From: an uncultured Trueperaceae bacterium
Lineage (GTDB): Bacteria; Deinococcota; Deinococci; Deinococcales; Trueperaceae
Direction: 5' to 3'
NCBI GenBank assembly: GCA_963815215.1
Contig: CAWFFU010000001.1
Span: 1 to 42,629, forward strand
Length of the DNA: 42,629 nucleotides
Shown here: positions 7,758-42,629 of the stretch, piece after piece
Layout: every line of letters starts with the position of its first letter
How positions within the stretch are numbered: the stretch's first letter is position 1
Notes under the pieces: model-generated
Seen by the model: only the letters and a program-made list of their open reading frames with translations
Databases searched by the model: none
Told to the model about the DNA's origin: nothing
Program-made: the position numbers and the translations under genes

Positions 7758-7763
7758 CCTGCC

Positions 7764-9833: not shown

Positions 9834-9848
9834 GCGCCGGCGGGCGCC

Positions 9849-24387: not shown

Positions 24388-25862
24388 TGCGCCGCGCCTC
24401 CAGTCCGCCGACCGGCGCACGGGTCGCAGGCGCACGGATGGCGCGCGCACGGATCGGCCGCACCCTGAGCGCGGTCGCCCTGGCCGCCCTCGCGCTCACC
24501 GCGTCCGCGCAACCCGCGAGCTGGCCCGACCCGAGCGCCATGACCTTCCCGCCCATCCACTTCCAGGCGCCGGCCCCGCACAAGGCGGTGCTCGCCAACG
24601 GCATCACCGTCTACCTCGCCGAGGACCACGCGCTGCCGCTGGTGCGCGGCGTCGCCTACGTGAAGGCGCCCGGCGTCTACGACCCGCCCGGCAGGACCGG
24701 GCTGGCGAGCTTCACGGCCCGGCTCCTGCGCGACGGCGGCGCCGGCGGACGCGCGCCCGACGCTATCGACGAACAGCTCGCGTACCTGGGCGCGTCGGTG
24801 GAGGCGAGCTCGTCCAACGACTACGCCGCGGTGTCGTTCTCCGCCCTGGCCGGCAACGTCGATCAAGTGTTGCCCCTGTGGCAGGACGTGCTCACCCGGC
24901 CCGACTTCGCGCCGGCGCGCGTCGAAGTGGAGCGTCAGCGTCAGCTCGAGGCGATCCGGCGGGTGGCCGACAACCCGGTGCAGCTCGCCGTGCGCGAGTT
25001 CTCCTACCGTGTCGCCGAGGGGCACCCGTCGGGCGCCTATCCCACCGCCGACACCATCGACGCCATCCGGCGCAGCGACCTGGTCGCCTTCCACGATGCC
25101 TACTACGCCCCGGCCTCGACCGTGGTGGCGATCACCGGGGACTTCGACAGCGCGCAGATGCTCGAGACGTTGAACGCCACGCTCGGGAGCTGGCGCCACG
25201 CACTGGCGCCGGCGCCCCGGCTCCCGGTCTTCAACCAGCACCCGACGCCGAAGGTCTACTTCGTGCAGAAGGACGTGCAGCAGTCGATCCTCCTGGTCGG
25301 CCAGCCGGCCATGAAGGCCTACACCCCGAGCTACGACGCCTTCACCGTCGCCAACCAGATCCTCGGCGCCGGCGGCTTCACCAGCCGCCTGTTCACCGAC
25401 ATCCGCACCCGGCGCGGGCTGGCCTACAGCACCGGCTCGCAGCTCTCGCAGGGCTTCGCCTACCCGGGGACCTTCCTGGCCTACGCCTTCACCCGCGCCG
25501 ACGCCACCGGCCGGGTGCTGCACCTGCTGCTCGACGAGATCGACCGACTCGGCACGGAGGGCGTGACGGCCGCGGAGGTGGCGCAGGCGCGCGAGCAGAT
25601 CGTCAACCAGGCCGTCTTCCGCGACACGTCGGTGGCCGCCACCACCGAGCGCACCGCCCGCGTCCAGCTGCTCGGCCTGCCCGAGGGCTACTTCCAGGCG
25701 TTCCTGGACACCGTCCAGACCATCACGCCTGCCGAGGTGCAGGCCGCCGCGAAGCAGGTCCTCGACCCCGGCGCCATGGTGATCATGGTGGTCGGGAACG
25801 CCGACGCGTTCGACGAGCCCCTGAGCGACTTCGGCCCGGTGGTGGACGTGCCGCTGCAATGA
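24384..25862 (+). CDS. M16B peptidase non-catalytic partner subunit
   Basis: Same fold (LANGITVYL, ILGAGGFTSRLF..IRTRRGLAYS) but lacks HxxEH. Overlaps the upstream stop and has a signal peptide. Confidence 0.88.
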   Translation: MMRRASSPPTGARVAGARMARARIGRTLSAVALAALALTASAQPASWPDPSAMTFPPIHFQAPAPHKAVLANGITVYLAEDHALPLVRGVAYVKAPGVYDPPGRTGLASFTARLLRDGGAGGRAPDAIDEQLAYLGASVEASSSNDYAAVSFSALAGNVDQVLPLWQDVLTRPDFAPARVEVERQRQLEAIRRVADNPVQLAVREFSYRVAEGHPSGAYPTADTIDAIRRSDLVAFHDAYYAPASTVVAITGDFDSAQMLETLNATLGSWRHALAPAPRLPVFNQHPTPKVYFVQKDVQQSILLVGQPAMKAYTPSYDAFTVANQILGAGGFTSRLFTDIRTRRGLAYSTGSQLSQGFAYPGTFLAYAFTRADATGRVLHLLLDEIDRLGTEGVTAAEVAQAREQIVNQAVFRDTSVAATTERTARVQLLGLPEGYFQAFLDTVQTITPAEVQAAAKQVLDPGAMVIMVVGNADAFDEPLSDFGPVVDVPLQ

Positions 25863-26005
25863 GCGCTCCGGGCGGCAGCGGCAGGTCCGGTCGCCCGCCG
25901 CTGCCGCCCCCCGGGACGCCGGGCGGCGCCGACCGGGCCCGCCGCGGCCGGGCCTGAGCGTCGCGAGCGCGTGTGCGCCCCGGCGACCGGCGCCGGCGCG
26001 TGGCT

Positions 26006-26584
26006 TCAACGAACGGGTTCGTAGACGAGCTTCTGGATGCCGTTCTCGTACGCCTCGCTCTCGACCAGGCGCAGCATCTGCTTCGCCTTGTCGCGACCGC
26101 TGAACAGGCGCTGTCCCGCGCCCAGCAGCAGGGGGAAGACCAGCAGGTGGTACCGGTCGATCAGGCCGGCATCGGTGAGGCCTCTGCCGAGCGTGGCGCT
26201 GCCGTGCATGATGATCGGGCCGCCTTCGCCGCGCTTCAGATCCGCGACCTGGTCCAGCGTACGGAGGATCCTCGTCGCTCCCCAGTTCGTCACGAGGTCG
26301 GTCTCCTCCATCGTGGTCGACACGACGTACTTCGGCATGGCGTTGTAGTCGGTGAACTCCTCCATGCCCGGCCACACGGGCGCGAACGCCTCGTAGCTCC
26401 GCCGACCCATCAGCATGGCCGTGGCTTCCCGCTGCTCCCGGGCCTTGATCTCGTAGGCCGCCTCGACGAAATCGAGGTCCTCGAAGGTCCAGCCGGCGCT
26501 CCGGTGCGTCTCGGAAGGGCCGCCCCCCGGGGCTTCGACGACGCCGTCGAGCGAGACGAAGGACGTGGAGATCAGTGTGCGCAT
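26006..26584 (-). CDS. Dihydrofolate reductase-like (RibD C-terminal) protein
   Basis: FVSLDGV, LMGRRSY, PKYVVS, HGSATL, LIDRYHL.VFP.LLG.G.RLF. SD ggagg. Confidence 0.88.
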   Translation of the reverse strand: MRTLISTSFVSLDGVVEAPGGGPSETHRSAGWTFEDLDFVEAAYEIKAREQREATAMLMGRRSYEAFAPVWPGMEEFTDYNAMPKYVVSTTMEETDLVTNWGATRILRTLDQVADLKRGEGGPIIMHGSATLGRGLTDAGLIDRYHLLVFPLLLGAGQRLFSGRDKAKQMLRLVESEAYENGIQKLVYEPVR

Positions 26585-26875
26585 GTGCGCCCTCCCATGG
26601 GCACGGGGCTTCGCGCAGGCCTAGCGATGCGGCGCCGCCGTGGTGGCGCGCATCTCACCTTGCCGATCGTGCCGCTCGGTGGCATCCTACGCCCGGGTCG
26701 ACGCGCCCGAACGTGCGCGAGCGAACGGCGACCCCGGGGCGCCCGGAGCGCCGGGCCGCGCGCGCCGCGGCGGTCGCGCAGGGCCTCGCCCGACCCCCGC
26801 TTCGACACCACGGCCGGTACGTCCGATTCGCCTGAATCAGGTCGCGTTATGCCGGGAATCAGACGGTCGTATGCC

Positions 26876-26904
26876 CTGAGTACCCATAACGCTGAGTACC
26901 CATA
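26876..26904. promoter_or_regulatory. 13-bp direct repeat upstream of acs (candidate transcription factor site)
   Basis: CTGAGTACCCATA at 26876-26888 and 26892-26904 in a comparatively AT-rich intergenic region. Confidence 0.4.
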
Positions 26905-27003
26905 CCGGGGCGAACAACCTTGCGTCCGGGGCATTTGTCCCACTATGGTTGGGGGGTATCTAAAACCTTAAGGCTTGATGAAGCCGCGAACGGGAGGCAA
27001 TCG

Positions 27004-29028
<2,025 letters not shown>

Positions 29029-29115
29029 CCGGTTCACTCGTGACGCCCGACCGAGGGCCCCGGTGATGGGGGCGACCGCCGTGCCCAGCGGAGGCGCCTT
29101 AAGGAGGCGGATCGG

Positions 29116-29679
29116 ATGAACGCAAAGCTCGCCAACCCTGCACCGTTAGGACTTGCAGGCTTCGCATTCACCACCTGGATGCTCAGCATGATCAACGTCG
29201 GCTGGTTCGACGCCAAGAGCATGGGCCTGGTGCTCGCCCTGGCGCTGGCCTACGGCGGTACGGCGCAGATGGTTGCCGGCATCCTGGAGTTCCCTCGAGG
29301 CAACACCTTCGGCACCGTGGCGTTCTTCTCCTACGGCTCGTTCTGGTGGTCGTTCGCCCTGTTCGTGTACTTCTTCGGGACCGGCGTTTCGGGAGCCTTC
29401 GTGGGCTGGTACCTGTTCGTGTGGGGCATCTTCACCTTCTACATGTGGATCGCCAGCATGAAGGCCAATACCGCCCTGATGCTGGTGTTCCTGGCGCTGT
29501 GGATCACCTTCCTGTTCCTGGCGCTGGGCGAGTGGGGGCTCACCGCCTTCCACACCATCGGCGGCTACGTAGGCCTGATCACCGCCATCCTGGCGTTCTA
29601 CCTGTCCGCCGCCGAAGTGATCAACGAGTCCTTCGGCCGCACCGTGCTGCCCATCTCGGGCGGCGGGGCCGCGAAGTAG
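29116..29679 (+). CDS. satP: Acetate uptake transporter (GPR1/FUN34/YaaH, SatP)
   Basis: ANPAPLGL motif, YGGTAQ..AG, GNTFG..AF.SYG.FW. SD aaggagg. Downstream of acs. Confidence 0.92.
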   Translation: MNAKLANPAPLGLAGFAFTTWMLSMINVGWFDAKSMGLVLALALAYGGTAQMVAGILEFPRGNTFGTVAFFSYGSFWWSFALFVYFFGTGVSGAFVGWYLFVWGIFTFYMWIASMKANTALMLVFLALWITFLFLALGEWGLTAFHTIGGYVGLITAILAFYLSAAEVINESFGRTVLPISGGGAAK

Positions 29680-29839
29680 GCGGCAGCCGGGGACTGAGTC
29701 TCCGACGTCGTCCCGAGCCGCGGCCCACTGCGGGCCGGCCGCTCGGCGAGCAGACCGGGAGCGCGCGGGGGCGCGCTCCCGGTCTCGTGTCGTCGGCCCT
29801 CGGCTGCGGGCGCCGTTGTGAGGACGCGATCGCCGGCGC

Positions 29840-31286
29840 CTAGCGTTCGCCGGTCCCCTCGAAGGCGACGCGCCGGCCGTCCACCCGGAAGACGTCCCCC
29901 TCGAGGCGCTCGATCCTCGGTTCGCTGCTGAGCCAGGCCGCCAGCGCCTCACGCTCGCCTTCGTCCAGCCAGGCGGGCGGGTCGGAGCAGCCCTTGAAGC
30001 CCGCCACCAGCCCCAGATCCTGCAGGGCATGTCGCTGCCCCGGCGTGAGCAGGTCGTAGCGCGAGCGGAAGAACGCCACGTCGGGGTCGGTGTGCACCAG
30101 CGGCTTCAGCCACAACCGCGCGACGCTGGTGACGATCGCGCCGCGCGCCGCGGGTCCGGTCGGGTCGTGGAGCAGCAGCCGGCGGTCCTCGTTGTCCCAG
30201 TAGGGGGCCGTGTCCGGACCGACGCGAAGGCCGTCGGCCAGGCCGAGCGACGCCAGCACCGGAGCGCCGCACGCCAGCAGGTAGGCGTCCTCCCCGCAGG
30301 CCTCGCGCACCAGCGCCAGCGCCTCGCGGTAGGCACGCTCGCGCCCCATCGGCCGGTGGCGCACGCCGGGCAGGGCGGCGGCGTACAGGAAGTCCAGCTT
30401 GAGAAGCTCGAAACCCCAGCCGCGGGTCCGCCGCACGGTCGCCTCGAGCCAGCCCTGTACCTCGGGGTGCGTGGTGTCGAGGGCGTAGAAGGGTCCGCCC
30501 CAGTTGTCGCCCGCCGGCACCGGCTCGCCGGCAGCGTCGCGCAGCAGCCACGCCGGGTGGTCGCGGACGAGGCCGCTGCCCGGCCGCGCGATGAACGGCG
30601 CGAGCCACAGCCCGGGGGTGAGCCCGGCGGCGCGGATGCGCATCGCCATGCTCCCCATGCCCGACGGAAAGGCGTCGTTGGGTTCCCAGTCGCCGATGGC
30701 CCGCTGCCAGCCGTCATCGATCTGGAAGGCGTCGAAGGCCAGGCCCCGCAGCCCGTCGAGGACCTCGAGCAGGGCGTTCTCGGAGATGTCGCGGTAGAAA
30801 CCGTACCAGCTCGACCACAAGCGAGGCGCGGCGGCGGCGGCGCGGCGCCCGAAGCGCTCGGCGAGCCGCTCGGCGTAGGCGCCGAACACCTCCGCCTCCG
30901 ACCCGAACGCCACGAACCAGTCCCCGGCGCCCTCCTCGTAGCCGCCCTCGAGGCCCTGCGCGTCCGCTTCGACGCGTGCGGCCAGCTCGAGCGCGCCGAG
31001 CAGCAGCACGCCGTCGGCCGTGGCGAGGGCGCCCACCCCACTGCCGCCGTGCCGGTCGTCCTGGGCGTAGCGGGGGTCGTCCCCCTGCGGGCGCCTGCGC
31101 CGGGGGCTCGATGGCGTGCACCGGCTCGCTGAGCTCGAGCCAGCGCGCCTCGCTCCAGCTCTGCCAGCCGTGCCGGTAGAAGCGGGTGGCGCCGCCGCCG
31201 GCCAGGACGATCCGCTCGGCGCGGAGCCGGAAGCCGCCCGGCACCGGCTCGGCTCCGGCCGGCAGCTCGGCCGGTCCGAGCCTCAA
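29840..31286 (-). pseudogene. GH36 alpha-galactosidase (Thermus type) with a frameshift near 31102-31106
   Basis: N-terminal MRLG...FYRHGWQSWS is in one frame. RPQGDDP...GSGVGAL, WSSWY, FQIDDGWQ, GLWLAPF, LKLDFLY, RVGPD and TDPDV are in another. One extra base lies at a G5 run. Confidence 0.85.
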
Positions 31287-31354
31287 GGGGACACGTCCCA
31301 CGCGGGCAGCTCGAGGGGCGCTAGGCGGCGCAGGACGGCGTCCAGGGAAGGCAT
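31283..31354 (-). CDS. Putative leaderless 23-aa upstream ORF coupled to the alpha-galactosidase
   Basis: TAGACT lies 6 nt before ATG 31354. MPSLDAVLRRLAPLELPAWDVSP-stop, with the TGA overlapping the TTG at 31286. Confidence 0.3.
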   Translation of the reverse strand: MPSLDAVLRRLAPLELPAWDVSP

Positions 31355-31665
31355 GCTCCCAGTCTACGGAGTCTTCCCAACTCGCATCGGTCCTCTGCCC
31401 CCCGGAGCGCCGGGGACCCTGGCCGCGCCCTGGCCGCGCCCCGACCGTCGAGTGTCGCGTCGTCGACCGTCGTGTAAAGGACCTAACCGCACCCCCCGGT
31501 CCGATGCGGTACCTTGCTCGCTGCCTCCCTCCGGGGAGGCTCCCCAATCGATGGCCGCGGTGGCGCTGCCCCGCGCTCATCACCCACACCCCCTTCCAGG
31601 GGATGGGAGCGCGCGGCGTCCCCCCACGCCGCGCGCTCCGATGCCTCGGGCCCAGCTTCATCGCC

Positions 31666-31725
31666 CCTGTCTACTCGGCGCCTGTCTACTCGCCCCCTGT
31701 CTACTCGCCCCCTGTCTACTCGCCC
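31666..31725 (+). repeat. 15-bp tandem repeat x4 upstream of the GGDEF-terpene synthase gene
   Basis: cctgtctactcggcg followed by cctgtctactcgccc x3. Confidence 0.9.
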
Positions 31726-31823
31726 CGTAATGCCTCGCGCCCGGGGCGCGTCCGGGCAGCCGCGCCTGCCCCACGGCCGGATACTTCCTGGTCGCCCTCG
31801 CGCGCAGACGGTAGAGTGCGGGT

Positions 31824-33986
31824 ATGAAGTCGGGAGCGGAGATGGGGGGCGGGGGCCCTTACACCGACCGGGAACCGGACGCCCCGGCTGTTGGGCGGGA
31901 CGCCCCCGCCGTCGTCCGCGTCAAGCGGAACTTCTACCTGTTCCTGTTGCCGCTGCTGGCGGCCGTGGTGCTGGTCACCGGGATCCTCGGCGCGCCCGGC
32001 TCCTTCGATCAGATCGTCCTGCCCGCCGTCAGCGCCGTGATGCTGCTGATGCTGCTGCCGGTGTACGGTCGCTGGCTCCCTCCGCGCTACATCGAGAGGG
32101 CGGTCTTCGGTCTCTTCGCGTTGCTGTACCTGAGCAAGCTGGCGATCAGCCTCTCCGAGGCCGAGAACCTCTACCAGATCTTCGTGTGGACGCCGCTGCT
32201 CTATGTGCTGGCGTTCCTGATGTTCGATCCAGGACCCGGACTCATCGCCTCTGTCATCGTGCTGGCCGTCTCGTCCGGTGTGGCGGTGACCGGCGCGCTG
32301 CTGACGGCGATCCCGGCCCGCAGTCTGTTCGAGTACTACCTCGCGAACGGACTGCTCGTCTCCATGGTCTACGGGCTCTCGCGCCTGAGGCGCGACGTCG
32401 CTTCGCTACAAACCCAGCTCGTGGGCATGCGGCAGCTCGCCCACGAGGACGTCCTTACCGGGTTGCCCAACCGCCGTGCGCTGGAGGCGATCCTCGACAG
32501 GGCCATCGCGCTGGCGGAGCGCCGGACCCAGGACGTGGGCGTCCTCCTGTTCGACCTCGATGACTTCAAGCGCGTCAACGACGAGCACGGCCACGATGCC
32601 GGCGACCAGGTGCTGCGCGGCGTAGCGCTTCGTGGCGAGAGCGTGCTGCGGCGCCCTGATGTCTTCGGCCGCTGGGGCGGGGAGGAGTTCCTGGTGATCA
32701 CCCCCGGGATCGACCTGCCCGGCGCCATGCGCGTGGGCGAGCGCCTTCGCGAGGCCCTCGCCTCCCACCCCTTCGGGGATACCGGGACGGTGACGGCGAG
32801 CTTCGGCGTGACGACCTACCACCCCGGCGACACCACCGAGACGCTCCTGAAGCGCGTCGACGACGCGCTCTACCTGGCCAAGCAGAGCGGCAAGGATCGG
32901 GTCGACGCCCTGGCGCGCGAGATGGTGGAGCACGTCGTCCTGCCGGCCCTCGCCCGACCCTTCCCGCCGGTCGAGCGCGACACCGAAGCGCTGCAGCGCA
33001 ACACGCTGGCGTGGTTGAAGGCCTTCGAGGTGGCGCCGCCCGAGACGCTCTACCGCTGGGTGGCCGCGGTCCAGCCCGGCTGGCTGGCCGGCCACATGCA
33101 CCACACCGATGACGCCGGCGCTCTTCAGATCGTGTCGGACTGGACCTTCTGGATGTTCCTGCACGACGACCACTGCGACACCAGCGCCGCCGGGCGCCAC
33201 CCCCGCTACCTGATCGACCTGCACCAACGCCTGCTCGGCGTGCTCGCCGGCGACGACCCACAGCCGCGCGACGGCGCACTGGCGGCGTTGCTGGCCGACC
33301 TGCGCACGCGCCTGGAGGCGGCCGCCGGCGCGGACGCCGTCCGGCACTTCGCCGACGCCACCGATCGCTACTTCGCTGCAACCCGCTGGGAGGCCGCCAA
33401 CCGTGCCAACGGCACCCCGCCCGACCTGGAGACGTACCAGCGCATGCGCCTGCTGACCAGCGGCCTGCAGGTGCACACCGTCCTGCTGCAAGCGCTGGAA
33501 GGCGTACCGACGTCCACCCACCCGCTGGCGAAGGCGCTCTATGCGTCGGCGGACCTCGCCGTGTGCTGGGCGAACGATATCTACTCGCTCAACAAGGAGG
33601 TCCAGGAGGCGGACATGCACAACCTGGTGATGGCCCTGCAATCGACCCACCACATGGGCCTCGACGCCGCGTTGGGGCGGGCCGCACGCATGCACGACGA
33701 GCAGGTCGCCGATTATCAGCGCTTGCGCTCGTCGGTCGACGCCCAGGACGGATCGGAGCGCACGCAGCTGCTGACGATCGCACGGGCGCTGGAGGCGCGC
33801 ATGGGGGCCAACGTGGCCTGGTCCGAGCGCTGCAGCCGGTACCGCGCCGCGGTGACGGTGCGGGTGTCCGCCGATACGTCCACAGACCCGTCAACAGACG
33901 CATCCACAGACGCATCCAAAGACGCATCCAAAGACGCATCCGCCGACCCCAAGGCCGCCGCATCAGCCACCGAGAGCGGCGCCTGA
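31824..33986 (+). CDS. Fusion protein: membrane sensor region + diguanylate cyclase (GGDEF) + class I terpene synthase
   Basis: About 5-6 TM helices, then EDVLTGLPNRR, DLDDFKRVND..GH..GD, RRPD I-site and GGEEF (32676-32690). After that: LHDDHCD (DDxxD, 33165-33179), YQRMR..TSG, NDIYSLNKE (NSE, 33573-33599), HNLV and WSERCSRY (33819-33842). TAGAGT lies 6 nt before the ATG. Confidence 0.9.
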   Translation: MKSGAEMGGGGPYTDREPDAPAVGRDAPAVVRVKRNFYLFLLPLLAAVVLVTGILGAPGSFDQIVLPAVSAVMLLMLLPVYGRWLPPRYIERAVFGLFALLYLSKLAISLSEAENLYQIFVWTPLLYVLAFLMFDPGPGLIASVIVLAVSSGVAVTGALLTAIPARSLFEYYLANGLLVSMVYGLSRLRRDVASLQTQLVGMRQLAHEDVLTGLPNRRALEAILDRAIALAERRTQDVGVLLFDLDDFKRVNDEHGHDAGDQVLRGVALRGESVLRRPDVFGRWGGEEFLVITPGIDLPGAMRVGERLREALASHPFGDTGTVTASFGVTTYHPGDTTETLLKRVDDALYLAKQSGKDRVDALAREMVEHVVLPALARPFPPVERDTEALQRNTLAWLKAFEVAPPETLYRWVAAVQPGWLAGHMHHTDDAGALQIVSDWTFWMFLHDDHCDTSAAGRHPRYLIDLHQRLLGVLAGDDPQPRDGALAALLADLRTRLEAAAGADAVRHFADATDRYFAATRWEAANRANGTPPDLETYQRMRLLTSGLQVHTVLLQALEGVPTSTHPLAKALYASADLAVCWANDIYSLNKEVQEADMHNLVMALQSTHHMGLDAALGRAARMHDEQVADYQRLRSSVDAQDGSERTQLLTIARALEARMGANVAWSERCSRYRAAVTVRVSADTSTDPSTDASTDASKDASKDASADPKAAASATESGA
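33873..33944 (+). repeat. 12-bp tandem repeat x6 encoding a D-x-S-x tail
   Basis: gatacgtccaca gacccgtcaaca gacgcatccaca gacgcatccaaa x2 gacgcatccgcc. Confidence 0.85.
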
Positions 33987-34112
33987 GCCCGCCTGCCGCC
34001 TCTGGATCCGGAAGACCGCACGCGGGCCGCCGAGTCGCACCGCCGAATCGCACCGCCAGACCGCACCGCCAGACCCGGCTCACGGAACCCAGGTCACGGA
34101 ACCCAGTCACAA

Positions 34113-34145
34113 GTGAGGGGGGCGCCCATCGGGCGCCCCCCTCAC
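34113..34145. terminator. Perfect 15-bp stem hairpin between convergent genes (likely bidirectional terminator)
   Basis: gtgaggggggcgccc-atc-gggcgcccccctcac. Confidence 0.75.
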
Positions 34146-34187
34146 GCTCCCGCCTCCGGCGGGGAGCCGTCGTGTCGGCGGCGTACG

Positions 34188-35714
34188 CTAGTTCGTCACC
34201 TTGAACGCGTAGCGGAAGTGGAACTTGTGGGGGTGATCCTGCCAGGTGAGGACGGCCTGCCGGTACAGGAAGGGCTGCTCGTCGACCGCGCTGTAGTCCT
34301 TGTTGCGGTAGAACGACGGGTACAGGTCGATGTAGTGCCAGCCCGGCGCCCAGCTCGCGGTGACGGGGACGACCACGTCGCCGTTGGTGCTGAAGCCGCA
34401 GCCGTACCCCAGGTAGACGTTGTCGATCACGACGGCGAAGATGTTGGTGGTCTGGGTCCAGCCCAGGCCCTTGACATGGATGGTGATCTTGGTCCCGACC
34501 GGTCCTTCGGTCGGCTGAAGCGGCAGCCCCACGACGCCGATGTCGAAGTGGGTGCTGGCGACCACCTTGTCGCCGACCATGGCCTGGAGCCGGTGCTCGC
34601 CGCCGAGGGCGTCGGGGTACTGGAACGGGAGGTCGAAGGCCCCGCTGGCGTCCGTCTTCACCGTCTTCACGGGCACGGTAGCCGCCGAGTAGGCCGACTC
34701 CGTCACGCGCGAGCCGCTCATGGTGGAGAAGGCGAGCGCCACGTCGCTGTTGGCGGGCAGGCCGCGTCCGTGGATCTGGGCGTCCGTGTAGACCCCCGCG
34801 GCCTTGGGATCGACCCAGAGCTTCGGCCCACTGCCGCTGGGCTCGGAGCCGGCGATCGGCGCCTGGCTCTGCTGCTCGATGGGCTTGGGCATCAGCGCCG
34901 GGCCGTCGGTCACCGTGAACATGAACTGCGGCTCGGGCAGGTAGCCGTAGGGCGAGGAGCCCAGAGCCAGGTAGGGCGCGTCGAAGGGCGCATCGCGAAG
35001 CTCGACGAGATGCTTGCCCACCCGTCCCGTCGCCGGGATCACGAAGTTGGCGGTGCCGTGCGTCTCGACGGCGGTGACGAAGCCGGTGATGGCGTTGTCG
35101 TAGGTGAGGGCGTACCACGAGATGTTGTTGATGGCGTCGACGCCGGTGATGCCCACGTGGATGTCGGTGCCCACGGGGCCGCTCTGCGGCGACATGGTGG
35201 CGTGCATCTCCACGTAGTAACCGGCCTTGTTGACGTTGTCGCCGTTCTCCTGGACGTAGATGTCATGGTTTCCGCCGAAGCCCTCGGGAACCGTGAAGGC
35301 GGCCGAGAACGCGCCGTCGGAGCCGACCGTGACCGTGGCGAGCGGAACGCTCCGCTGGTCGAAGGTGCGTCCCAGGAAGTTGCCGGTGTAGTCGCCGTTC
35401 TTCATCTCCAGCTTCCACTGGCCGTCGAAGGCGGCCCACACGACGCTGAGGCTGGCGCCCGGCTCGAAGCCCGAGCCACTCAGCGTCGCCTGCGATCCGA
35501 CGATGCCCTTGGCGGGGGTCACCTGGATCTCGCCCTTGATCCCGTTGGGGAAGGTGGCCTGACTGGTGGCCGCGTTGCCCTGCGCCGAGGCGCCGGCGAA
35601 CAGCATGCCTGCGGCCAGGAACAGCACCGTCCATACGGCGCGGGCGCCCAGGCGCGGTTCATGGATTCTCGTGTTCACGGTTTCCATCTCCATCTCGTAG
35701 ATCGTGTCCCTCAT
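34188..35714 (-). CDS. Secreted beta-rich protein with internal duplication (Ig-like repeats), function unknown
   Basis: Signal peptide ending ASAQ. Duplicated segments (GAFSAAFTVPEGFGGNH / GAFDLPFQYPDALGGEH; PQSGPVGTDIHV / PTEGPVGTKITI; YDNAITG / IDNVYLG). Start uncertain. Confidence 0.75.
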   Translation of the reverse strand: MRDTIYEMEMETVNTRIHEPRLGARAVWTVLFLAAGMLFAGASAQGNAATSQATFPNGIKGEIQVTPAKGIVGSQATLSGSGFEPGASLSVVWAAFDGQWKLEMKNGDYTGNFLGRTFDQRSVPLATVTVGSDGAFSAAFTVPEGFGGNHDIYVQENGDNVNKAGYYVEMHATMSPQSGPVGTDIHVGITGVDAINNISWYALTYDNAITGFVTAVETHGTANFVIPATGRVGKHLVELRDAPFDAPYLALGSSPYGYLPEPQFMFTVTDGPALMPKPIEQQSQAPIAGSEPSGSGPKLWVDPKAAGVYTDAQIHGRGLPANSDVALAFSTMSGSRVTESAYSAATVPVKTVKTDASGAFDLPFQYPDALGGEHRLQAMVGDKVVASTHFDIGVVGLPLQPTEGPVGTKITIHVKGLGWTQTTNIFAVVIDNVYLGYGCGFSTNGDVVVPVTASWAPGWHYIDLYPSFYRNKDYSAVDEQPFLYRQAVLTWQDHPHKFHFRYAFKVTN

Positions 35715-35838
35715 ATTCGTACATCCTCATCCAGATTTAGAGCATAGGACGGGCGCCCTCGCTGCCGCTCGTTGAGCAACATGCCTTGATTCGCGGTAGG
35801 GGGCGCCCGGGAGTTACGTGCCTCGGCTCAGCGGAGGG

Positions 35839-36411
35839 CTATCCGAGCATCCAGTACCACCAGCGGTGCTTCTCGTAGCGCCGCAGCAGGGAGTCGACCC
35901 CCCAGATGTGGCCCGCGCCCATCGACGCCAGCGCGAAGAACGCGAAGATGGCGATGATCTGGACGTCGAACCAGCCGCTGGTCGGCGGCAGGCAGGCGGT
36001 GTAGAAGCTGAGCATGATCAGCGTGCCGGCCAGTGCCGCGAGGCGAGTGAGGAAGCCGCTGACCATGGCGAGGCCGATGGCCCCCGTGCCCAGGATCAGC
36101 AGCCAGAGGACGAGCTGATTTCCCCACAACGCCGTGTAGACCTGCCCGATGGGGCCCTGGACGACCCCGGGCAGCAGGGCGCTGGCGCCGGTCCAACCGT
36201 CCCAGCCCCCGCGGAAGAGCTTGTACGCCACCTGCAACATGCTCAGGCCAAGCGCCATGCGCAGCGCGAAGAGGGCGAACTCGCCGATCGAGAGCTTGGC
36301 GCTCTGGCCGAGCTGCTCCTCGGGCCGGTCGAAGCGGGAGCCGCTCCGGTCGTGAGCGGCCCGCTCCTCGGCAGCGAGGCCGGACATCCGTTGACGATCC
36401 GGAGCGGCCAT
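35839..36411 (-). CDS. DoxX family membrane protein (DoxD/TQO small subunit-like)
   Basis: LRMALG, AIGLAMVSGFLTRLAALAG, GAGHIWGVD; about 4 TM. Confidence 0.8.
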   Translation of the reverse strand: MAAPDRQRMSGLAAEERAAHDRSGSRFDRPEEQLGQSAKLSIGEFALFALRMALGLSMLQVAYKLFRGGWDGWTGASALLPGVVQGPIGQVYTALWGNQLVLWLLILGTGAIGLAMVSGFLTRLAALAGTLIMLSFYTACLPPTSGWFDVQIIAIFAFFALASMGAGHIWGVDSLLRRYEKHRWWYWMLG

Positions 36412-36415
36412 CTCG

Positions 36416-36916
36416 TTACCTCTTCTCGACCGTGATCAGGGTCGGGTAGCCTTCGGCGGTGGGGTAGTCCTGGTTCATGGGCGTCCAGGTCACCGTGTTG
36501 CCGGAGCTGTCCGTGACGATGAGCTGGTACTTGAGCACGCCCGTCGGATACACGGGTGGGATGACCCAGCCGGCCGCCCACATCCACACCTTGGGATCAC
36601 CGCTGTGCGGGTGCTCACCGAGCGCGAGGTCGACGGTCTTGCCGTCTTCGAGCTTGGCCGTGACCTTCATGCCGAGCTGCTTGGCCTGGTCGGGCGTGAC
36701 CACTTCGCCGGTCGCGGTGCTGTACACCTTGGCCAGCCATACGACCTGCTCACCGGTCTTGAACGTCGAGATCAGCACGCAGCTGGGCCCGGCGGCGTTC
36801 TGGCTGCCGCGCACGACCTCGGCCTGCAGGTAGTAGGCCGGACCTGCCGCGAACGCCGTGCCGACGATCGCTGCGAACGCCAGGGCGGTGACGAGGAACT
36901 TGATCTTACGCATCAC
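36416..36916 (-). CDS. Secreted hypothetical protein (~165 aa)
   Basis: SD aggagg, signal peptide MRKIKFLVTALAFAAIVGTAFA, and CVL..F, GEHP, W..GW.IP..YPTG motifs. Confidence 0.8.
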   Translation of the reverse strand: MMRKIKFLVTALAFAAIVGTAFAAGPAYYLQAEVVRGSQNAAGPSCVLISTFKTGEQVVWLAKVYSTATGEVVTPDQAKQLGMKVTAKLEDGKTVDLALGEHPHSGDPKVWMWAAGWVIPPVYPTGVLKYQLIVTDSSGNTVTWTPMNQDYPTAEGYPTLITVEKR

Positions 36917-37030
36917 TGAATCGCCTCCTAATGAACTGAACGATCCCGCTCCACGGGAATCATCCCGGTCGATCATCCTCCCTCGGGAAGTTGCGAAGAC
37001 AGGGACAAACATACCGCCCGGGACGCAAGA

Positions 37031-37048
37031 CACCCCCACGGGGTATAC
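37031..37048. promoter_or_regulatory. CsoR/RcnR/CstR-type operator candidate
   Basis: Minus strand GTATACCCCGTGGGGGTG is a TAC-C-tract / G-tract pseudo-palindrome upstream of the three-gene operon. Confidence 0.45.
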
Positions 37049-37412
37049 GCTCTGCATCGGGTCTGTCGCGTTGGGAAGGGGCTTCCTGCAGACGCCTCGT
37101 GCGCCCCGGTGGAGCGGCGCGCGCACGCCGTGGTGCGGGAAGGATGGGTGTGGTTGACGGCCACGGGACGATTGACCCCCTTCAAGGATCCCGAGCGTGG
37201 AAGGACCACTCCGATGCTAGCGGACGGCGGGTCCCGCGGAGGGTAGCAAACTGCACGAAATCGGTCAGGATTCGTTCATCGACCCCTCATCTTCGGGGGT
37301 CTCATCGCCGCATCTCTCGGCTACCTTCGGCTGCCCGCGGCCCGTCCGCGGTTGCACCGCGGCCGACCCCGCCCGACGTCCCGGCGGGACCCGGCGCCGC
37401 CCCGTAAGCGGC

Positions 37413-39662
37413 TCAGTCCGCCTCGTTCAGCGCCAGGAACGCGTCCACCACCGCGGGGTCGAAGTGCCCGCCCGTCTCCTTCCGGATGTGGGCGATGGCC
37501 TCGTCGTGACTCCATGCCGGCCGGTAGGGACGATCGCTGGTGAGCGCGTCGTAGACGTCCGCCACCGCGAAGATGCGCGCCGCCAGCGGGATCGCTTCGC
37601 CGCTCAGCCCCATCGGATAGCCGGAGCCGTCCCAGCGCTCGTGGTGGGCGGCCGGGATGGCGAGCGCGGGCTTCAGGAAGTGGATGGGCGCCAGCAGGTC
37701 GGCGGCGAAGATGGTGTGCTGGCGCATGCGCGCCCACTCCTCGTCGGTCAGGGCGCCAGGTTTCTGGAGGATGGCGTCGGGCACCCCCATCTTGCCGATG
37801 TCGTGGAGCAGCGCGCCGCGCCGGATGTGGACGAGTTCCTCCTCGGGCCGGCCCATCGCGCGCGCCAGGCGCAAGCTCAGCTCGGTCACCCGGCGCGAGT
37901 GCCCTTCGGTCTCCTTGTCGCGCAAGTCGAGCGCGCGCGACCAGCCCTCGATGGTGGCGTCGTAGGCGGCGCGCAGCTCCTGGTTGCTGGCCGCCAGGTC
38001 GGCGACAAGCGCCGCGTTATCGATGAGGATGGCGCCCTGCGTCGCCACCGTGACCAGGAACTCCAGCCAGTCGGGTCCGACCTCGAGCGGGCTGCGGTGG
38101 GCCACCACCAGGCCGCCCCGCAGGCCGCCGCGCGCGTACATGGGCGCGGCTGCGAGCAACTCGAGGGGCAGCGGGGGCGCACCGGCGTCCGCGCCCAACG
38201 CCCCTTCGATCTGCGGCCGCCCCCGGGCCAGGTAGGGCGTCCCGTCCAGGATCGCGCGACCCACGACGCTGGCGTCTGCCGACAGGCGCCGGGCCGCGGC
38301 CGGGAAGCTCGCCCCACGCGCTTCGAGGAGCTCCAGCTCGGAGCCGTCCGCCGCAGCGACGTAGGCGGCGGCCACATCGATCCCCAGGCCCTCGCGAGCG
38401 GCCTCGAGGAACGTCCCCGCCGCCGACCGCAGGTCGGTGCCGGCGGTGATCGCCGTATCGATGCGCCGCAGCGTCGTCAGCCGCTGGACCTGCGTATGCA
38501 GGTCGCGGTTGAGCACGCGGATGTTCTCCCGCGCCAGCGCCTGTTCGGTGACGTCCCGCTTCGCCGCCACGAAGTGCTCGATCGCCCCGCGGGGACCGAT
38601 GACGGGCGTGATGCTCATCGCCTCGCGATACTCGGAGCCGTCCTTGCGGCGGTTGATGAGCTCGCCGCTCCACGGCCGCCCCGCCGTCACGGTCTCCCAT
38701 AGCGATCGGTAGAAGGCGGGGTCCTGCCGTCCCGAGCCCAGCATGCGGGTGTGCGAAGCCACCAGCTCGTCCTCGCCGTAGCCCGTCAGCCTCAGCGCAT
38801 GCGGGTTCGCCCATTCGATGAAGCCGTCGGGGTCGGTCACCACGATCCCCACCGGGGCGGCCTGCAGGGCGGTGAGCTGCAGCCGCAGGCGCGCCTCGCC
38901 CTCCTCCTCCCGGGTGCGATCGATGAGCGTGCCCACCAGGGTGCGCTCCCCCTCCAGCCTGACCACCTGCTCCAGCGCCTCCACCGGCACCACCGAACCG
39001 TCGCGGCGCAGGCCGCGGAACCGGAAGCGCCGGATCTCGTCCCCGGCGTCCTGCAGGTCCGCGACGTCGTCGGCCACCCAGGCGTGGTCCTCCGGGTGCA
39101 CCACGTCGGCCGGCACGAGCCGCTCCACCACTTCCTCGGGCGTGAAGTCGAAGATCGCGGCGAAGGCCGCGTTGACGTAGGTGAAGCGACCCTCGCGGAT
39201 GGAGTAGGTCCCGGCCAGCACGTTCTCCGCGATCTGTTCCAGGTGCCGCTCGTTGGCCCGTAACTCGTGCTCCAGCGCCCGGTGGCGCTCGAGCGCGGCC
39301 CTGAGCTGACGATCGCGGTTGCGCCAGAGCCCCACGGCGACTCCGAACGCCACCGTGACCAGGGCGGTCGGCACGCCCGGTACCGTCAGGCTCGAGAAGG
39401 GAGCGGCATGATCGAGCACCGTCGCCGTCAGGGTCGAATGCAGTAGCAGCGCGACCAGGGCGGAGGCGACGCCGCCCACCAACCCGTAGCACCAGCCGGC
39501 CACGGCCACCGGCAGCAGCATGAGCGCCGCCGTGTCCACGGCCAGCGCCGGCTCCAGGGCGAAGAACGCCACCCCATAGACAACGAAGCCCCCGATGACG
39601 GAGGCGACCTCCCCGGCGGTCTGCCGTCCACTACGCGTCACTGACAACCCATCCCCTGACAC
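37413..39662 (-). CDS. Membrane PAS-PAS-GAF-HD-GYP c-di-GMP phosphodiesterase
   Basis: N-terminal TM helices, two PAS/PAC domains (VHPED; WSGELINRRKDG), GAF, RDKETEGH, LHDIGK and HHERWDGSGYP. Confidence 0.92.
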   Translation of the reverse strand: MSGDGLSVTRSGRQTAGEVASVIGGFVVYGVAFFALEPALAVDTAALMLLPVAVAGWCYGLVGGVASALVALLLHSTLTATVLDHAAPFSSLTVPGVPTALVTVAFGVAVGLWRNRDRQLRAALERHRALEHELRANERHLEQIAENVLAGTYSIREGRFTYVNAAFAAIFDFTPEEVVERLVPADVVHPEDHAWVADDVADLQDAGDEIRRFRFRGLRRDGSVVPVEALEQVVRLEGERTLVGTLIDRTREEEGEARLRLQLTALQAAPVGIVVTDPDGFIEWANPHALRLTGYGEDELVASHTRMLGSGRQDPAFYRSLWETVTAGRPWSGELINRRKDGSEYREAMSITPVIGPRGAIEHFVAAKRDVTEQALARENIRVLNRDLHTQVQRLTTLRRIDTAITAGTDLRSAAGTFLEAAREGLGIDVAAAYVAAADGSELELLEARGASFPAAARRLSADASVVGRAILDGTPYLARGRPQIEGALGADAGAPPLPLELLAAAPMYARGGLRGGLVVAHRSPLEVGPDWLEFLVTVATQGAILIDNAALVADLAASNQELRAAYDATIEGWSRALDLRDKETEGHSRRVTELSLRLARAMGRPEEELVHIRRGALLHDIGKMGVPDAILQKPGALTDEEWARMRQHTIFAADLLAPIHFLKPALAIPAAHHERWDGSGYPMGLSGEAIPLAARIFAVADVYDALTSDRPYRPAWSHDEAIAHIRKETGGHFDPAVVDAFLALNEAD

Positions 39663-39803
39663 GCCACCTTGCGATCAGCCTCGCCGACCGGGAAGCACGC
39701 AACTCTTACGCCCCCACGCAATGCGTGCTCGCCCGCGCACGTCGGCCTGCCGACAACCTGGCTGGGCGCCGCATCTATAGAGTAAGCCGAGACGGAGGCT
39801 AGC

Positions 39804-40883
39804 ATGCGCTATCGACCCCTCGGCAGGACCGGAACGCTGGTCTCGGAGCTGTGCCTCGGCACCATGACCTTCGGCGGCCAAGGCATCTGGGAGGCCATCG
39901 GCAGCCAGCAGCAGACGGAGGCGACCGCCCTGGTGCGGCGCGCGCTCGAAGGCGGCGTGAACTTCCTCGACACCGCCAACGTCTATTCCATGGGCGCCAG
40001 CGAACGGCTGCTGGGCCAGGCCCTCAAGGACCTGGGGGTGGACCGCAGCCAGGTGGTGCTGGCCAGCAAGGTGCGCGGGCGCATGGCGCCCGGCGTCAAC
40101 CAGTCGGGGCTGAGCCGCGCTCACATCGTCGACCAGGTGCACCGCAGCCTGGAGCGGCTCCAGACCGACCACCTGGACCTCTACCAGATCCACGGTTTCG
40201 ACCCGCTCACGCCGCTGAAGACCACCCTTCGCGCCCTCAACGACCTGGTGCGCGAGGGTACGGTGCGCGCCATCGGCGCCAGCAACCTGGCAGCCTGGCA
40301 ACTCGCACGTGCGTTGTGGATCAGCGACGTGGAGGGGCTCGAGCGCTTCGAGAGCCTTCAGGCCTACTACACCGTGGCGGGGCGGGGCCTGGAGCGGGAG
40401 GTGGCGCCCCTGTTGATCGACCAGGGCCTGGGCCTGATGGTGTGGAGCCCGCTGGCCGGCGGCCTGCTGTCGGGCAAGTTCGACCGTGCCACCGCCAAGG
40501 CCGGCGGCGCCCGGCGCGACAGCTTCGACTTCCCGCCCGTCGACCGTGAGCGGGCGTGGGACGTCGTGGACGTCATGCGCGACATCGGCGGGGCGCACGG
40601 CGTCAGCGTGGCGCAGATCGCACTCGCCTGGTTGCTCCATCAAGATGTCGTCACCAGCGTCATCATCGGCGCCAGGTCGATGGCCCAGCTCGAGGACAAC
40701 CTCGCCAGTCCGGACATCGCGCTGTCGGCCGACGAGCTGGCCCGCCTCGACGCGGCGAGTGCGCTGCCGCCCGAGTACCCGGGCTGGATGGTCGCGCGGC
40801 AAGCGGGCGACCGCGACCTCGCACACCTGTCCGAGAGCGCGCCGCCGGTGCTGGGGGGCGAGCAAGCGAAGACGTCGTCCTGA
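39804..40883 (+). CDS. Aldo/keto reductase
   Basis: LGRTG..VSELCLGTMTFG, DTANVY, ASK, DLYQIH, IGASN, WSPLAGGLL. SD ggagg. Confidence 0.93.
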   Translation: MRYRPLGRTGTLVSELCLGTMTFGGQGIWEAIGSQQQTEATALVRRALEGGVNFLDTANVYSMGASERLLGQALKDLGVDRSQVVLASKVRGRMAPGVNQSGLSRAHIVDQVHRSLERLQTDHLDLYQIHGFDPLTPLKTTLRALNDLVREGTVRAIGASNLAAWQLARALWISDVEGLERFESLQAYYTVAGRGLEREVAPLLIDQGLGLMVWSPLAGGLLSGKFDRATAKAGGARRDSFDFPPVDRERAWDVVDVMRDIGGAHGVSVAQIALAWLLHQDVVTSVIIGARSMAQLEDNLASPDIALSADELARLDAASALPPEYPGWMVARQAGDRDLAHLSESAPPVLGGEQAKTSS

Positions 40884-41009
40884 GGCCGCGCCCGGACCGC
40901 AGCGGCCGCACGGCGGTGCGCGGGTTCGGGCACGAGGCGAGGGGGCACACGAGGAACAGGCGCGCGAGGAACAGGCGCGAGAAGATCGCGTGTCCGGCCG
41001 GCGCGGCGG

Positions 41010-42412: not shown

Positions 42413-42589
42413 GGCGCCCGTCCCGTGCGTCCTCCGGGCGCCCGACGCGTCGTCCCGTCGGCGGCGCGCCGGCCGAGGGGGGCGGCGATGCGCGGAAGGG
42501 TGCGTTCGGATTCGTTCGCCGGTGTCCTCACGGGTCGCCTCCGGGGCCGTCGTCCCCTCCGCGCACCACGGGCGCCGAGGAGCGTCAGA

Positions 42590-42618: not shown

Positions 42619-42629
42619 GTATTGCTTTA

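Follow-up and report, generated by a model that had tools for sequence, protein, structure and literature searches.

The window, by which the whole analysed stretch of 42,629 nucleotides is meant, encodes a polypeptide in which a membrane module and a GGDEF diguanylate cyclase domain are fused to a complete class I terpene synthase domain (Table 1). This fusion is most likely a bifunctional enzyme. We put the probability at roughly 0.5 that it is one inner-membrane protein with two working enzymes and a shared input.

Table 1. Coordinates of the fusion gene, its parts and a neighbouring gene in the window
Feature	Residues	Position	Strand	Basis or remark
-10-like hexamer TAGAGT		31812..31817	+	6 nt ahead of the start codon; transcript possibly leaderless
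Whole gene, membrane GGDEF-terpene synthase fusion	720 aa	31824..33986	+	ATG start, stop codon included
Six-helix intramembrane module, MASE6-like, very short outer loops	28-186	31905..32381	+	hydropathy and AF2 helices
Stalk/signalling helix, runs on from TM6	187-207	32382..32444	+	AF2: single helix 165-207
GGDEF diguanylate cyclase domain	206-362	32439..32909	+	PF00990, TIGR00254, PDB sequence matches
I-site RRPD	276-279	32649..32660	+	R276, D279 invariant 18/18
Active-site GGEEF	285-289	32676..32690	+	invariant 18/18
Connector, ~8 residues, last GGDEF strand to N-terminal strand of the synthase	363-370	32910..32933	+	AF2
Complete class I terpene synthase domain	371-675	32934..33848	+	PF19086; T-muurolol synthase 9hqd
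DDHCD, first metal-binding motif	448-452	33165..33179	+	D448, D449, C451, D452 invariant
R542, pyrophosphate-sensor Arg (presumed) in YQRMR (538-542)	542	33447..33449	+	Y538, R542, G547 invariant
NSE triad NDIYSLNKE	584-592	33573..33599	+	N584, D585, S588, K591, E592 invariant
WSERCSRY, C-terminal RY pair	666-673	33819..33842	+	W666, R672, Y673 invariant
Disordered low-complexity Ser/Thr/Asp/Ala tail	676-720	33849..33983	+	pLDDT < 50
PAS-PAS-GAF-HD-GYP protein	749 aa	37413..39662	-	HD_5 E 6.8e-41, plus PAS and GAF; 3.4 kb downstream of the fusion

One gene for both domains

The reading frame of the fusion is open throughout with no internal stop codon, as the initial annotation had stated for a single unbroken ORF, and its GC content at the three codon positions (0.72/0.47/0.90) is as usual for real genes in this DNA. 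An indel or a stop had been considered for the junction (~32880-32950), and neither was present in the Logan contigs spanning it. Contigs of 926 b (run X1, 32412-33319), 382 b (run X5, 32569-32950) and 203 b (run X3, 32829-33031) each showed 0 differences and 0 gaps, and no indel appeared for any of the four sequencing runs compared by their Logan contigs. The junction-spanning short-read contigs originate from two separate studies; run X1 is possibly the sample behind the assembly itself.

A second assembled copy of the gene lies at the start of contig C9, which overlaps the last 10.9 kb of the window with 99.74% identity. A duplicate gene in the genome (on C1 and C9) was rejected, as the contigs overlap end to start. 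The overlapping contig ends differ by indels and at least one neighbouring gene is frameshifted in the assembly, but both contigs yield an identical protein, the junction is unchanged in the data of two studies, an intact single-frame fusion is present in 19 species genomes of the phylum and none of 71 stand-alone synthase relatives has a same-strand membrane-GGDEF gene upstream (flank of ~3 kb at most), so that an artefact in which two adjacent genes were merged through an assembly or sequencing error is effectively refuted.

The hexamer in front of the start codon is the same in a related genome (G008) and reads TAGACT with equal spacing in another (G003). Leaderless mRNAs are common in Deinococcus. 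A consensus scan of 31000-34300 revealed no sigma-70-type promoter on the gene strand. Its only hits, a promoter-like and a terminator-like site on the minus strand within the gene, were put down to chance. Nowhere in the window did an Rfam family attain its gathering score, and hence no known riboswitch lies upstream.

Membrane module and GGDEF domain

The multi-TM N-terminus of the initial annotation corresponds to six helices in hydropathy analysis and AlphaFold2 (residues 28-54, 61-82, 87-112, 117-133, 136-158 and 165-207). Within this module K105, Q118, W122 and P124 are invariant in an alignment of 18 family proteins. The MASE6 profile PF20966 matched five of the 18 members (best E 7.3e-07), while the present protein had no match at E ≤ 1; a literature search for MASE6 gave one paper, an unrelated one. 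Because the N-terminal charges are positive and the number of helices is even, both enzymes are expected to lie in the cytoplasm.

The GGDEF domain was matched by PF00990 at residues 206-359 with 144.5 bits (cut-off 23.8, E 3.1e-42) and by TIGR00254 with 148.6 bits (cut-off 37.4). PDB sequence matches included PadC and PleD, and stalk-linked cyclases were hit with E values from 2e-34 to 1e-30. The palm-type fold was modelled with mean pLDDT values of 81-95 in the AF2 blocks of residues 211-360, and Foldseek matched it to 3ign (TM-target 0.91) and to the coiled-coil-linked cyclases DgcB (6ttr, 0.87) and PadC (5llw).

The GGEEF active site and the RRPD I-site had been described as intact, which the translation and the 18-protein alignment confirm. 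They are separated by five residues, a spacing that we take to be that of PleD by its numbering and that marks the product-inhibited subclass of cyclases, and RxxD-x5-GGEEF is also present in the fusions of a second family. A pattern scan of the loci of this family recovered GGEEF in 7/7 intact fusion frames, in the frameshifted G206 and in the diguanylate cyclase-bearing fragment of G148. D244, D246, K249, N252, D253 and D261 are invariant in 18/18 proteins and, by mapping to PleD, presumably bind metal and GTP.

Connector and terpene synthase domain

As the initial annotation had noted, a short linker leads into a synthase of ~300 aa. Residues 357-376 read KDRVDALAREMVEHVVLPAL; in the AF2 model they contain a strand (360-362) and a helix (364-368), and the block 361-370 has a mean pLDDT of 68. 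Just past the connector, P374, L376 and P379 are invariant in the 18-protein alignment.

The synthase domain is complete from its own N-terminus. NCBIfam terpene synthase models align from model position 2 at residue 372, and stand-alone synthase relatives have the same profile start position as the fusion domain. Terpene_syn_C_2 (PF19086) matched residues 439-629 with 135.1 bits (cut-off 23.7, E 3.4e-39). Among solved structures, the closest relative is the Roseiflexus castenholzii (+)-T-muurolol synthase (9hqd), which was matched by sequence with E 1.5e-47 over 291 residues and by fold in Foldseek with a TM-target of 0.89, an rmsd of 2.2 Å and 33% identity over 302 columns. The earlier description as pentalenene/epi-isozizaene-synthase-like was right as to a class I terpene synthase, but loose as a label. 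The motifs DDHCD, YQRMR, NDIYSLNKE and WxxxxxRY that it had listed are all found in the translation and their key residues are invariant in 18/18 proteins; the clade of the second family has DDRCD where the window protein has DDHCD. The role of R542 as ‘sensor’ Arg is assumed from the anatomy of bacterial synthases.

None of the product-specific NCBIfam synthase models reached its cut-off. The best was the selina-4(15),7(11)-diene synthase model with 111.4 vs 450 bits, and the 4-epi-cubebol (106.7 vs 500 bits) and epi-isozizaene (65.2 vs 675 bits) models were below cut-off as well. Substrate and product are therefore guesses. The model for terpene cyclases that are cargo of Family 2 encapsulins (NF041168) gave 70.8 bits, below its cut-off of 1200. 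The C-terminal tail contains a 12-nt tandem repeat of 5.2 copies (33879-33941) and is weakly conserved, with 59% identity to G008 vs 93% overall.

The AF2 model of the whole protein has a mean pLDDT of 81.8 and comprises both folds as well as a continuous TM6-stalk helix; at a pTM of 0.58, the placement of the domains relative to each other is not confidently predicted. A complex prediction of the GGDEF domain (200-366) with the synthase (372-680), with an 18-row alignment for each, gave no answer (0.00 twice) and is neutral on contact.

Distribution, conservation and origin

For stand-alone relatives, the synthase part alone as query gave only five matches, for which the low-complexity tail is probably to blame, and a genome scan with alignment A2 was used instead. 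Homologous fusions in related genomes, whose presence had been left to be checked, were found in 21 of 364 species genomes of the phylum, twelve of them Trueperaceae (the family of the window) and nine from a second family (taken as Deinococcus). Nineteen are one intact frame, one is frameshifted and one is broken at contig ends. Flags of one internal TAG in two genomes (G059 and G060) were rejected, as the TAG is the terminal stop of each gene and both are intact single frames. The cultured species Deinococcus metalli carries the fusion by sequence. Both domains were present in 20 protein clusters, and 18/18 aligned members matched both Pfam families. GGEEF, RxxD, DDxxD, the sensor Arg, NSE and RY are all kept down to ~36% identity.

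For five pairs, dN/dS was 0.24-0.30 in the GGDEF and 0.19-0.46 in the synthase part (NG86; rough values at 90% GC3), which indicates purifying selection on both halves. In the tree of the diguanylate cyclase half, 33/33 fusions lie to the same side of a branch supported by an SH-aLRT of 90. For the synthase half, the AU test did not reject a single fusion clade (p 0.195), and the trees of both halves contain the same two subclades. Both are compatible with one ancient fusion.

A PF19086 synthase occurs in 22 of the 364 genomes, among which no unfused copy of the synthase lineage of the fusion was found; the single stand-alone gene (G110) is of a distant type. The fusion is the only PF19086 gene of the present genome and the sole terpene synthase of this family in the genomes that carry it. 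The combination of this membrane module and GGDEF domain is also common as a stand-alone protein of ~360-390 aa.

Genomic neighbourhood

The genomic context links the fusion with c-di-GMP turnover and with terpene biosynthesis. The HD-GYP protein encoded downstream (Table 1) is likely a c-di-GMP phosphodiesterase according to its domains. It is syntenic in G003 with 78% identity and may form one functional unit with the fusion. In four genomes of the second family a PAS-GGDEF-EAL gene lies directly upstream of the fusion on the same strand, and a PAS-GAF-GGDEF-EAL gene abuts it in G019. The 3.3 Mb genome has 22 GGDEF matches, four of them inside the window; the adjoining c-di-GMP genes could partly reflect the local density of such genes, and related genomes are non-independent observations.

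Among the 26 flanking ORFs scanned in the window (24384-42628), neither a prenyltransferase nor a P450 was found, nor did any other terpenoid tailoring or precursor gene adjoin the fusion. The initial annotation was thus correct in that no prenyltransferase is adjacent. Its statement on the P450 holds for this window, but not for another genus, in which a divergent cytochrome P450 gene lies 64-94 bp upstream of the fusion in 3/3 genomes, while the other flank varies. An adjoining P450 is typically the mark of a terpene synthase with a biosynthetic role. A single query with the P450 of that genus gave no match in the present genome, which does not prove absence. Two polyprenyl synthases are encoded in the genome and are a possible substrate source.

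Proposed function and alternatives

In the protein, a six-helix, near-loopless sensor resembling MASE6 leads via an extended signalling helix to the GGDEF domain and, after ~8 residues, to the class I synthase. By analogy to other stalk-linked cyclases, the protein would be dimeric. Its membrane module, depending on its state, would fix the relative register of the paired stalk helices and thereby decide whether two GTP-loaded GGDEF domains meet and yield c-di-GMP, with product inhibition at the RxxD I-site. In the synthase, a prenyl diphosphate, most likely FPP from the cell’s own two polyprenyl synthases, would be ionised at the trinuclear Mg site and a cyclic terpene would be released beside the membrane. 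Because they are fused, the terpene and the c-di-GMP output would share promoter, copy number and location, and because the connector is so short, the same conformational switch is probably common to both. The invariance of all catalytic residues in both domains favours two working enzymes and speaks somewhat against a synthase that is a pure sensor.

The two enzymes may go further and form an allosterically coupled machine, which would be the first terpene cyclase gated directly by a second messenger, or the reverse by feedback; we hold this extension as tentative. The initial annotation had already suggested that a membrane signal, GGDEF dimerisation or c-di-GMP may gate terpene production. 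Here, the synthase would be switched via the 8-residue connector, either by c-di-GMP at RxxD or by a dimer state that the sensor imposes. Conversely, closure of the synthase driven by diphosphate could feed back on c-di-GMP synthesis, and the hydrophobic terpene, passed into the membrane, could be the ligand of the loop-less six-helix sensor and close a feedback loop that connects a membrane or volatile terpene with c-di-GMP signalling.

It is rather unlikely that both domains are active yet independent, so that the fusion only holds the synthase at the membrane and ensures its co-expression with the cyclase, no signal passing from one to the other. The synthase is complete and close to free-standing enzymes, the membrane-GGDEF half is widespread as a stand-alone protein, and the low pTM and connector pLDDT leave the inter-domain geometry without a confident model, all of which would suit a simple tether. 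However, the connector is very short and followed by three invariant residues, the two halves share their subclades, and a search of the genomes with PF19086 revealed no unfused copy of this synthase lineage, the one stand-alone gene being distant. That the halves have been kept together for so long is more readily understood if their linkage has a role of its own.

Class I synthases close upon diphosphate binding, and the synthase domain might, as the initial annotation had offered as its alternative, serve as a sensor that binds FPP or GGPP with Mg2+, closes, controls c-di-GMP synthesis and reports isoprenoid supply. Such a role would be consistent with this closure, with the N-terminal strand of the synthase only ~8 residues from the GGDEF domain and with the lack of an adjoining precursor or tailoring gene in the window. 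It is nevertheless improbable, as the residues for ionisation, beyond those for binding, are all invariant across the family and the P450 partner in 3/3 genomes of one genus implies a product that is formed and then oxidised. Moreover, the input domains of GGDEF proteins are usually N-terminal to the cyclase, and this position is already occupied by the membrane module.

The GGDEF domain could also mainly bind c-di-GMP as a receptor at its RxxD I-site, or be a dimerisation scaffold, with the synthase as the real output, switched by the c-di-GMP that other enzymes make and degrade. The invariant RxxD, the recurrent GGDEF-EAL and HD-GYP neighbours and the C-terminal position of the synthase, which generally suits an output domain, agree with this. 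In GGDEF domains of the receptor type the active site is usually degenerate, though, whereas GGEEF, D244, K249, N252 and D261 are invariant here too, and we regard a mainly receptor or scaffold role as quite improbable. Two working enzymes with a shared input are preferred.

Terpene synthases are normally soluble and regulated transcriptionally, and diguanylate cyclases normally act via separate receptor proteins. A covalent and anciently conserved union of both would be a direct link from c-di-GMP signalling to terpenoid production at the protein level, and may connect the formation of terpenes directly with a bacterial second messenger. It would give a first handle on the roles of terpenes in the Deinococcus group and would be a natural design for membrane-tethered, signal-controlled terpene synthesis. 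As a single polypeptide with two readily assayed activities and well-known point mutants, the fusion is directly testable.

Comparison with known systems

A published description of a GGDEF-terpene synthase chimera was not found in the open-access full text and bioRxiv content searched, which agrees with the initial annotation that knew of no characterised one. The synthase domain has the same α-helical class I fold as (+)-T-muurolol synthase from R. castenholzii (9hqd/9hqi), and its further bacterial relatives are the epi-cubenol, 10-epi-cubebol, avermitilol, selinadiene and epi-isozizaene synthases. DDxxD, the sensor Arg, NSE and RY are common to these sesquiterpene synthases and to the domain of ~310 aa in the fusion. 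In contrast, they are soluble, stand-alone enzymes of ~310-380 aa, while the fusion synthase makes up the C-terminal third of a signalling protein in the membrane. With ~33% identity to T-muurolol synthase and no product model at cut-off, the product of the fusion need not be T-muurolol.

The N-terminal part has the layout of stalk-helix-linked cyclases with an I-site, namely PleD, DgcB (6ttr), PadC (5llw), SiaD and membrane MASE-GGDEF proteins, in which an N-terminal input leads through a helix to a GGDEF domain with GGEEF and RxxD. Unlike the fusion, these carry no terpene synthase; an enzyme domain that follows GGDEF is normally EAL.

Class I synthases within larger polypeptides are known from multi-domain synthases. 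Geosmin synthase has two synthase domains, and P0199 and P0159 contain two or four PF19086 domains. Such proteins join synthase to synthase in one pathway, whereas in the fusion the partners of the synthase are a second-messenger cyclase and a membrane sensor.

Proteins that bind cNMP are encoded beside 2-methylisoborneol synthase genes, and family 2B encapsulins are cNMP-binding shells with terpene cyclase cargo. As in the fusion, a nucleotide second messenger is associated with a class I terpene cyclase in these systems. They consist of separate proteins with cAMP-type binding domains, however, while in the fusion a predicted c-di-GMP synthase is joined covalently to the terpene synthase.

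Architecture of the fusion protein

The fusion gene starts with ATG and comprises 720 codons in one frame with no stop inside. Its GC contents at the three codon positions (0.72/0.47/0.90) match those of real genes in this ~70% GC genome. NCBIfam terpene synthase models aligned from model position 2 to about residue 680, so the synthase domain is complete and not a fragment. Pfam and NCBIfam, together with the modelled fold, placed the protein in the GGDEF family and in the class I synthase family, and NCBIfam assigned it to no product-specific synthase family. An AlphaFold2 model calculated from an 18-row alignment (mean pLDDT 81.8, pTM 0.58) and hydropathy gave six membrane helices with very short loops, the last of which is prolonged into a stalk that leads to the GGDEF domain. 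The connector between the GGDEF and synthase domains has 8 residues. Both enzyme domains are predicted to be cytoplasmic from the even helix count and the positive residues before TM1. The initial annotation had described a membrane part, a GGDEF domain and a complete class I synthase. This was confirmed by Pfam, NCBIfam, AlphaFold2 and the motifs, all of which were found in the translation where they had been placed.

The C-terminal tail varies in length and sequence among orthologs.

Features of the window and of the fusion protein
Feature	Position	Strand	Remark
GGDEF domains	754-1209; 2976-3443; 7054-7506		window
748-aa ORF	15969-18215	-	34% identical to G003 ortholog of the window's HD-GYP protein
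Acetyl-CoA synthetase; YaaH-type channel; aldo-keto reductase			neighbours of fusion
Alpha-galactosidase-like (melibiase) gene	29840-31289	-	frameshifted; upstream of and divergent from fusion
Hairpin	31606-31639		perfect 13-bp stem; divergent intergenic region
15-bp tandem repeat	31664-31726		4.2 copies, 93% matches; ~100-160 bp upstream of fusion start codon
Fusion gene	31824-33986	+	720 aa
GGDEF domain of fusion	32439-32900		window
12-nt tandem repeat	33879-33941		5.2 copies; encodes Thr-Asp-Ala-Ser-rich disordered tail
Three genes			no clear family match; downstream of fusion
PAS-PAS-GAF-HD-GYP gene	37413-39662	-	3.4 kb downstream of fusion
Last membrane helix and stalk	residues 165-207		AlphaFold2, hydropathy
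GGDEF	residues 206-359		Pfam, E 3.1e-42
I-site RRPD	residues 276-279		translation
GGEEF	residues 285-289		translation
Start of synthase models	residue 372		NCBIfam
Helical synthase domain	residues 388-669		AlphaFold2
Terpene_syn_C_2	residues 439-629		Pfam, E 3.4e-39
DDHCD	residues 448-452		translation
YQRMR	residues 538-542		translation
NDIYSLNKE	residues 584-592		translation
WSERCSRY	residues 666-673		translation
Tail	residues 676-720		disordered, Ser/Thr/Asp-rich; AlphaFold2

Integrity of the gene

The assembly of the window's genome (G000) is imperfect. The end of the window (31752-42629) was assembled again as the first 10.9 kb (1-10894) of contig C9 with 99.74% identity and with indels (10895 aligned columns vs 10878 bases), which makes the contigs direct neighbours. 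The copies disagree in some reading frames; 40640-42412 (-), for instance, has 590 aa in the window but 472 aa in C9. Compared with its 492-aa ortholog in genome G003, the alpha-galactosidase-like gene is split over two frames near 31074-31108, which reflects a frameshift or else an error of the assembly. Two of the window's GGDEF matches were repeated on contig C5, probably through another contig overlap.

The fusion gene was identical in both overlapping contigs. It was also compared with Logan short-read contigs of four sequencing runs from two studies, the best-matching of which may be the source sample. The junction between the two enzyme parts (about 32880-32950), where an indel or stop would have meant two separate genes, was crossed with 0 differences and 0 gaps by contigs of the runs X1 (926 b, 32412-33319), X5 (32569-32950) and X3 (32829-33031). 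No indels were listed anywhere in the fusion gene for the four runs. The strongest case against an artefact, a reading of next to no probability, is the comparative one, namely the occurrence of the fusion in other genomes.

Distribution of the fusion

The search for other proteins of this architecture, as suggested by the initial annotation, was successful. When 5.8 billion protein clusters were searched by word index, 20 contained both Pfam domains (38-100% identical, 563-770 aa); the other matches listed were ordinary GGDEF proteins. With HMMER and a family profile, only six full-length single-stretch matches were found among 1.84 billion representatives, followed by a drop in score from 708 to 418 bits. 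Public names, where given, were 'diguanylate cyclase' (simply so at NCBI for a representative from Deinococcus metalli), 'GGDEF domain-containing protein' and 'hypothetical protein', and one fragment was named '5-epi-alpha-selinene synthase'. Unusual multi-synthase architectures unrelated to the fusion were seen in the metagenomic proteins P0159 (1617 aa, four PF19086 domains in one chain) and P0199 (669 aa, two).

A PF19086 match above cut-off was present in 22 of 364 species genomes of the phylum. The fusion occurred in 21 of them, namely in 12/128 genomes of the window's family, Trueperaceae, and in 9/125 of a second family; the remaining one (G110) encodes a distant 315-aa stand-alone synthase. 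The second family is regarded as Deinococcus, since its member genome G184 has a cyclase half with the same sequence as the D. metalli protein. Within the window's genus, four of nine other genomes carried the fusion. One intact frame was verified in 19 of the 21 genomes. In G206 (L128, contig C93), a frameshift near the synthase C-terminus places the RY motif in another frame, and in G148 the gene (L129/L130) is split over two contig ends; either may be a pseudogene or an assembly error. In second-family assemblies with few contigs, the fusion lay on contigs of 290-620 kb, never the largest (G162:C4, G178:C2, G215:C5, G252:C2, G184:C2), and may be located on secondary replicons in these Deinococcus-like genomes.

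When 185,579 species genomes were scanned with the synthase-domain alignment, 80 loci were kept. Nine were fusions, whose sources were exclusively Trueperaceae, Deinococci and unnamed MAGs. The other 71 encode the synthase by itself and belong to Rubrobacteraceae (33-36% identity), a cyanobacterium, Chitinophaga, Ktedonobacter, Nannocystis and others. A same-strand upstream membrane-GGDEF gene was found at none of these 71 loci. As far as the searches see, the architecture is restricted to the Deinococcus group.

Conservation and origin

An alignment was made of eighteen fusion proteins that share 36-84% identity with that of the window. Invariant residues of the GGDEF half were GGEEF, R276 and D279 of the I-site, D244, D246, K249, N252, D253 and D261. 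In the synthase half, D448, D449, C451, D452, R542, N584, D585, S588, K591, E592, R672 and Y673 were invariant, as were P374, L376 and P379 of its N-terminal strand. The same motifs are kept in the second-family clade. Pairwise dN/dS (NG86, five pairs), rough at this GC3, was 0.24-0.30 for the GGDEF domain, 0.19-0.46 for the synthase and 0.37-0.81 for the membrane module. Both enzyme domains are under constraint, and the sensor (membrane) part is the fastest to evolve. Between G000 and G003 (L013), two species of one genus, the fusion is 72% identical compared to 90-96% for the five nearest flanking genes. The HD-GYP gene is also lower with 78%.

The synthase-half tree (24 fusion and 17 stand-alone rows; excluded were fragments, one identical copy and two multi-synthase proteins) contained two fusion clades, and a single clade was not rejected (AU p 0.195). 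In the cyclase-half tree, built from 33 fusions plus 22 stand-alone sequences (the best of 44 candidates), a branch with SH-aLRT 90 had all fusions to one side, again divided into these two subclades. The trees fit a single ancient event that joined a native membrane-GGDEF gene to a synthase. Membrane-GGDEF paralogues are present throughout the order, and the nearest free relatives of the synthase are now found in other phyla.

Genomic context

The fusion is the sole PF19086 gene of G000. As claimed initially, no prenyltransferase or P450 is adjacent: a scan of 26 flanking ORFs revealed neither these nor a methyltransferase. Two polyprenyl synthases are encoded elsewhere in the genome. In all three genomes of the genus g28 (G055, G056, G057), a divergent cytochrome P450 gene (454-464 aa) lies 64-94 bp upstream of the fusion, and the downstream flank is different in each. 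A terpene synthase next to a P450 is the classic minimum for a terpenoid cluster, and of the evidence available this pairing speaks best for a synthase domain that makes a product.

In G215, G252, G184 and G205, the gene immediately upstream, on the strand of the fusion, encodes a PAS-GGDEF-EAL protein (894-1025 aa); the gap is 63-67 bp in three of the four. In G019, the fusion is abutted tail to tail by a PAS-GAF-GGDEF-EAL gene. A paralogous membrane-GGDEF gene is found at a distance of 1.8 kb in G162, and a TPR-GGDEF gene at 2.2 kb in G178. The HD-GYP gene is syntenic in G000 and G003. These recurrent c-di-GMP turnover neighbours are suggestive but no proof, given that the carriers are related and GGDEF genes frequent (22 matches in G000).

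The window itself is rich in c-di-GMP genes, with four GGDEF domains and the HD-GYP protein. The 15-bp repeat unit has no other occurrence in G000, and G008 and G003 lack the array in their orthologous regions. The hairpin is kept in both, although one pair has undergone a compensatory change in G003; its forward arm sequence occurs six times in the genome.

Possible mode of action

Established knowledge of stalk-linked GGDEF cyclases and class I synthases suggests that the protein would dimerise and that the stalk register, set by the membrane module, would decide whether the two GGDEF domains meet productively. c-di-GMP could inhibit via RxxD, and the synthase would ionise FPP or another prenyl diphosphate and release the terpene at the membrane. 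That both enzymes are functional and share a common input has a probability of about 0.5. It is rather unlikely that both conserved enzymes, joined by so short a connector, are functional and independent of each other. Set beside the P450 pairing, a synthase acting as prenyl-diphosphate sensor is distinctly improbable; a GGDEF domain that keeps both I-site and GGEEF and is chiefly a c-di-GMP receptor or scaffold is equally so. The regulatory ideas of the initial annotation, terpene production gated by a membrane signal, dimerisation or c-di-GMP, or a synthase controlling c-di-GMP output, are plausible.

Comparison with known systems

In open-access full text, no GGDEF/c-di-GMP-terpene synthase fusion was found described, and the two subjects were co-mentioned separately only. 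Foldseek matched the synthase part to (+)-T-muurolol synthase from Roseiflexus castenholzii (TM-target 0.89, rmsd 2.2 Å, 33% identity) and the GGDEF-plus-stalk part to PadC, DgcB and PleD. Taken singly, the halves are ordinary members of well-known families, and the novelty lies in their combination, which is rare, conserved and directly testable.
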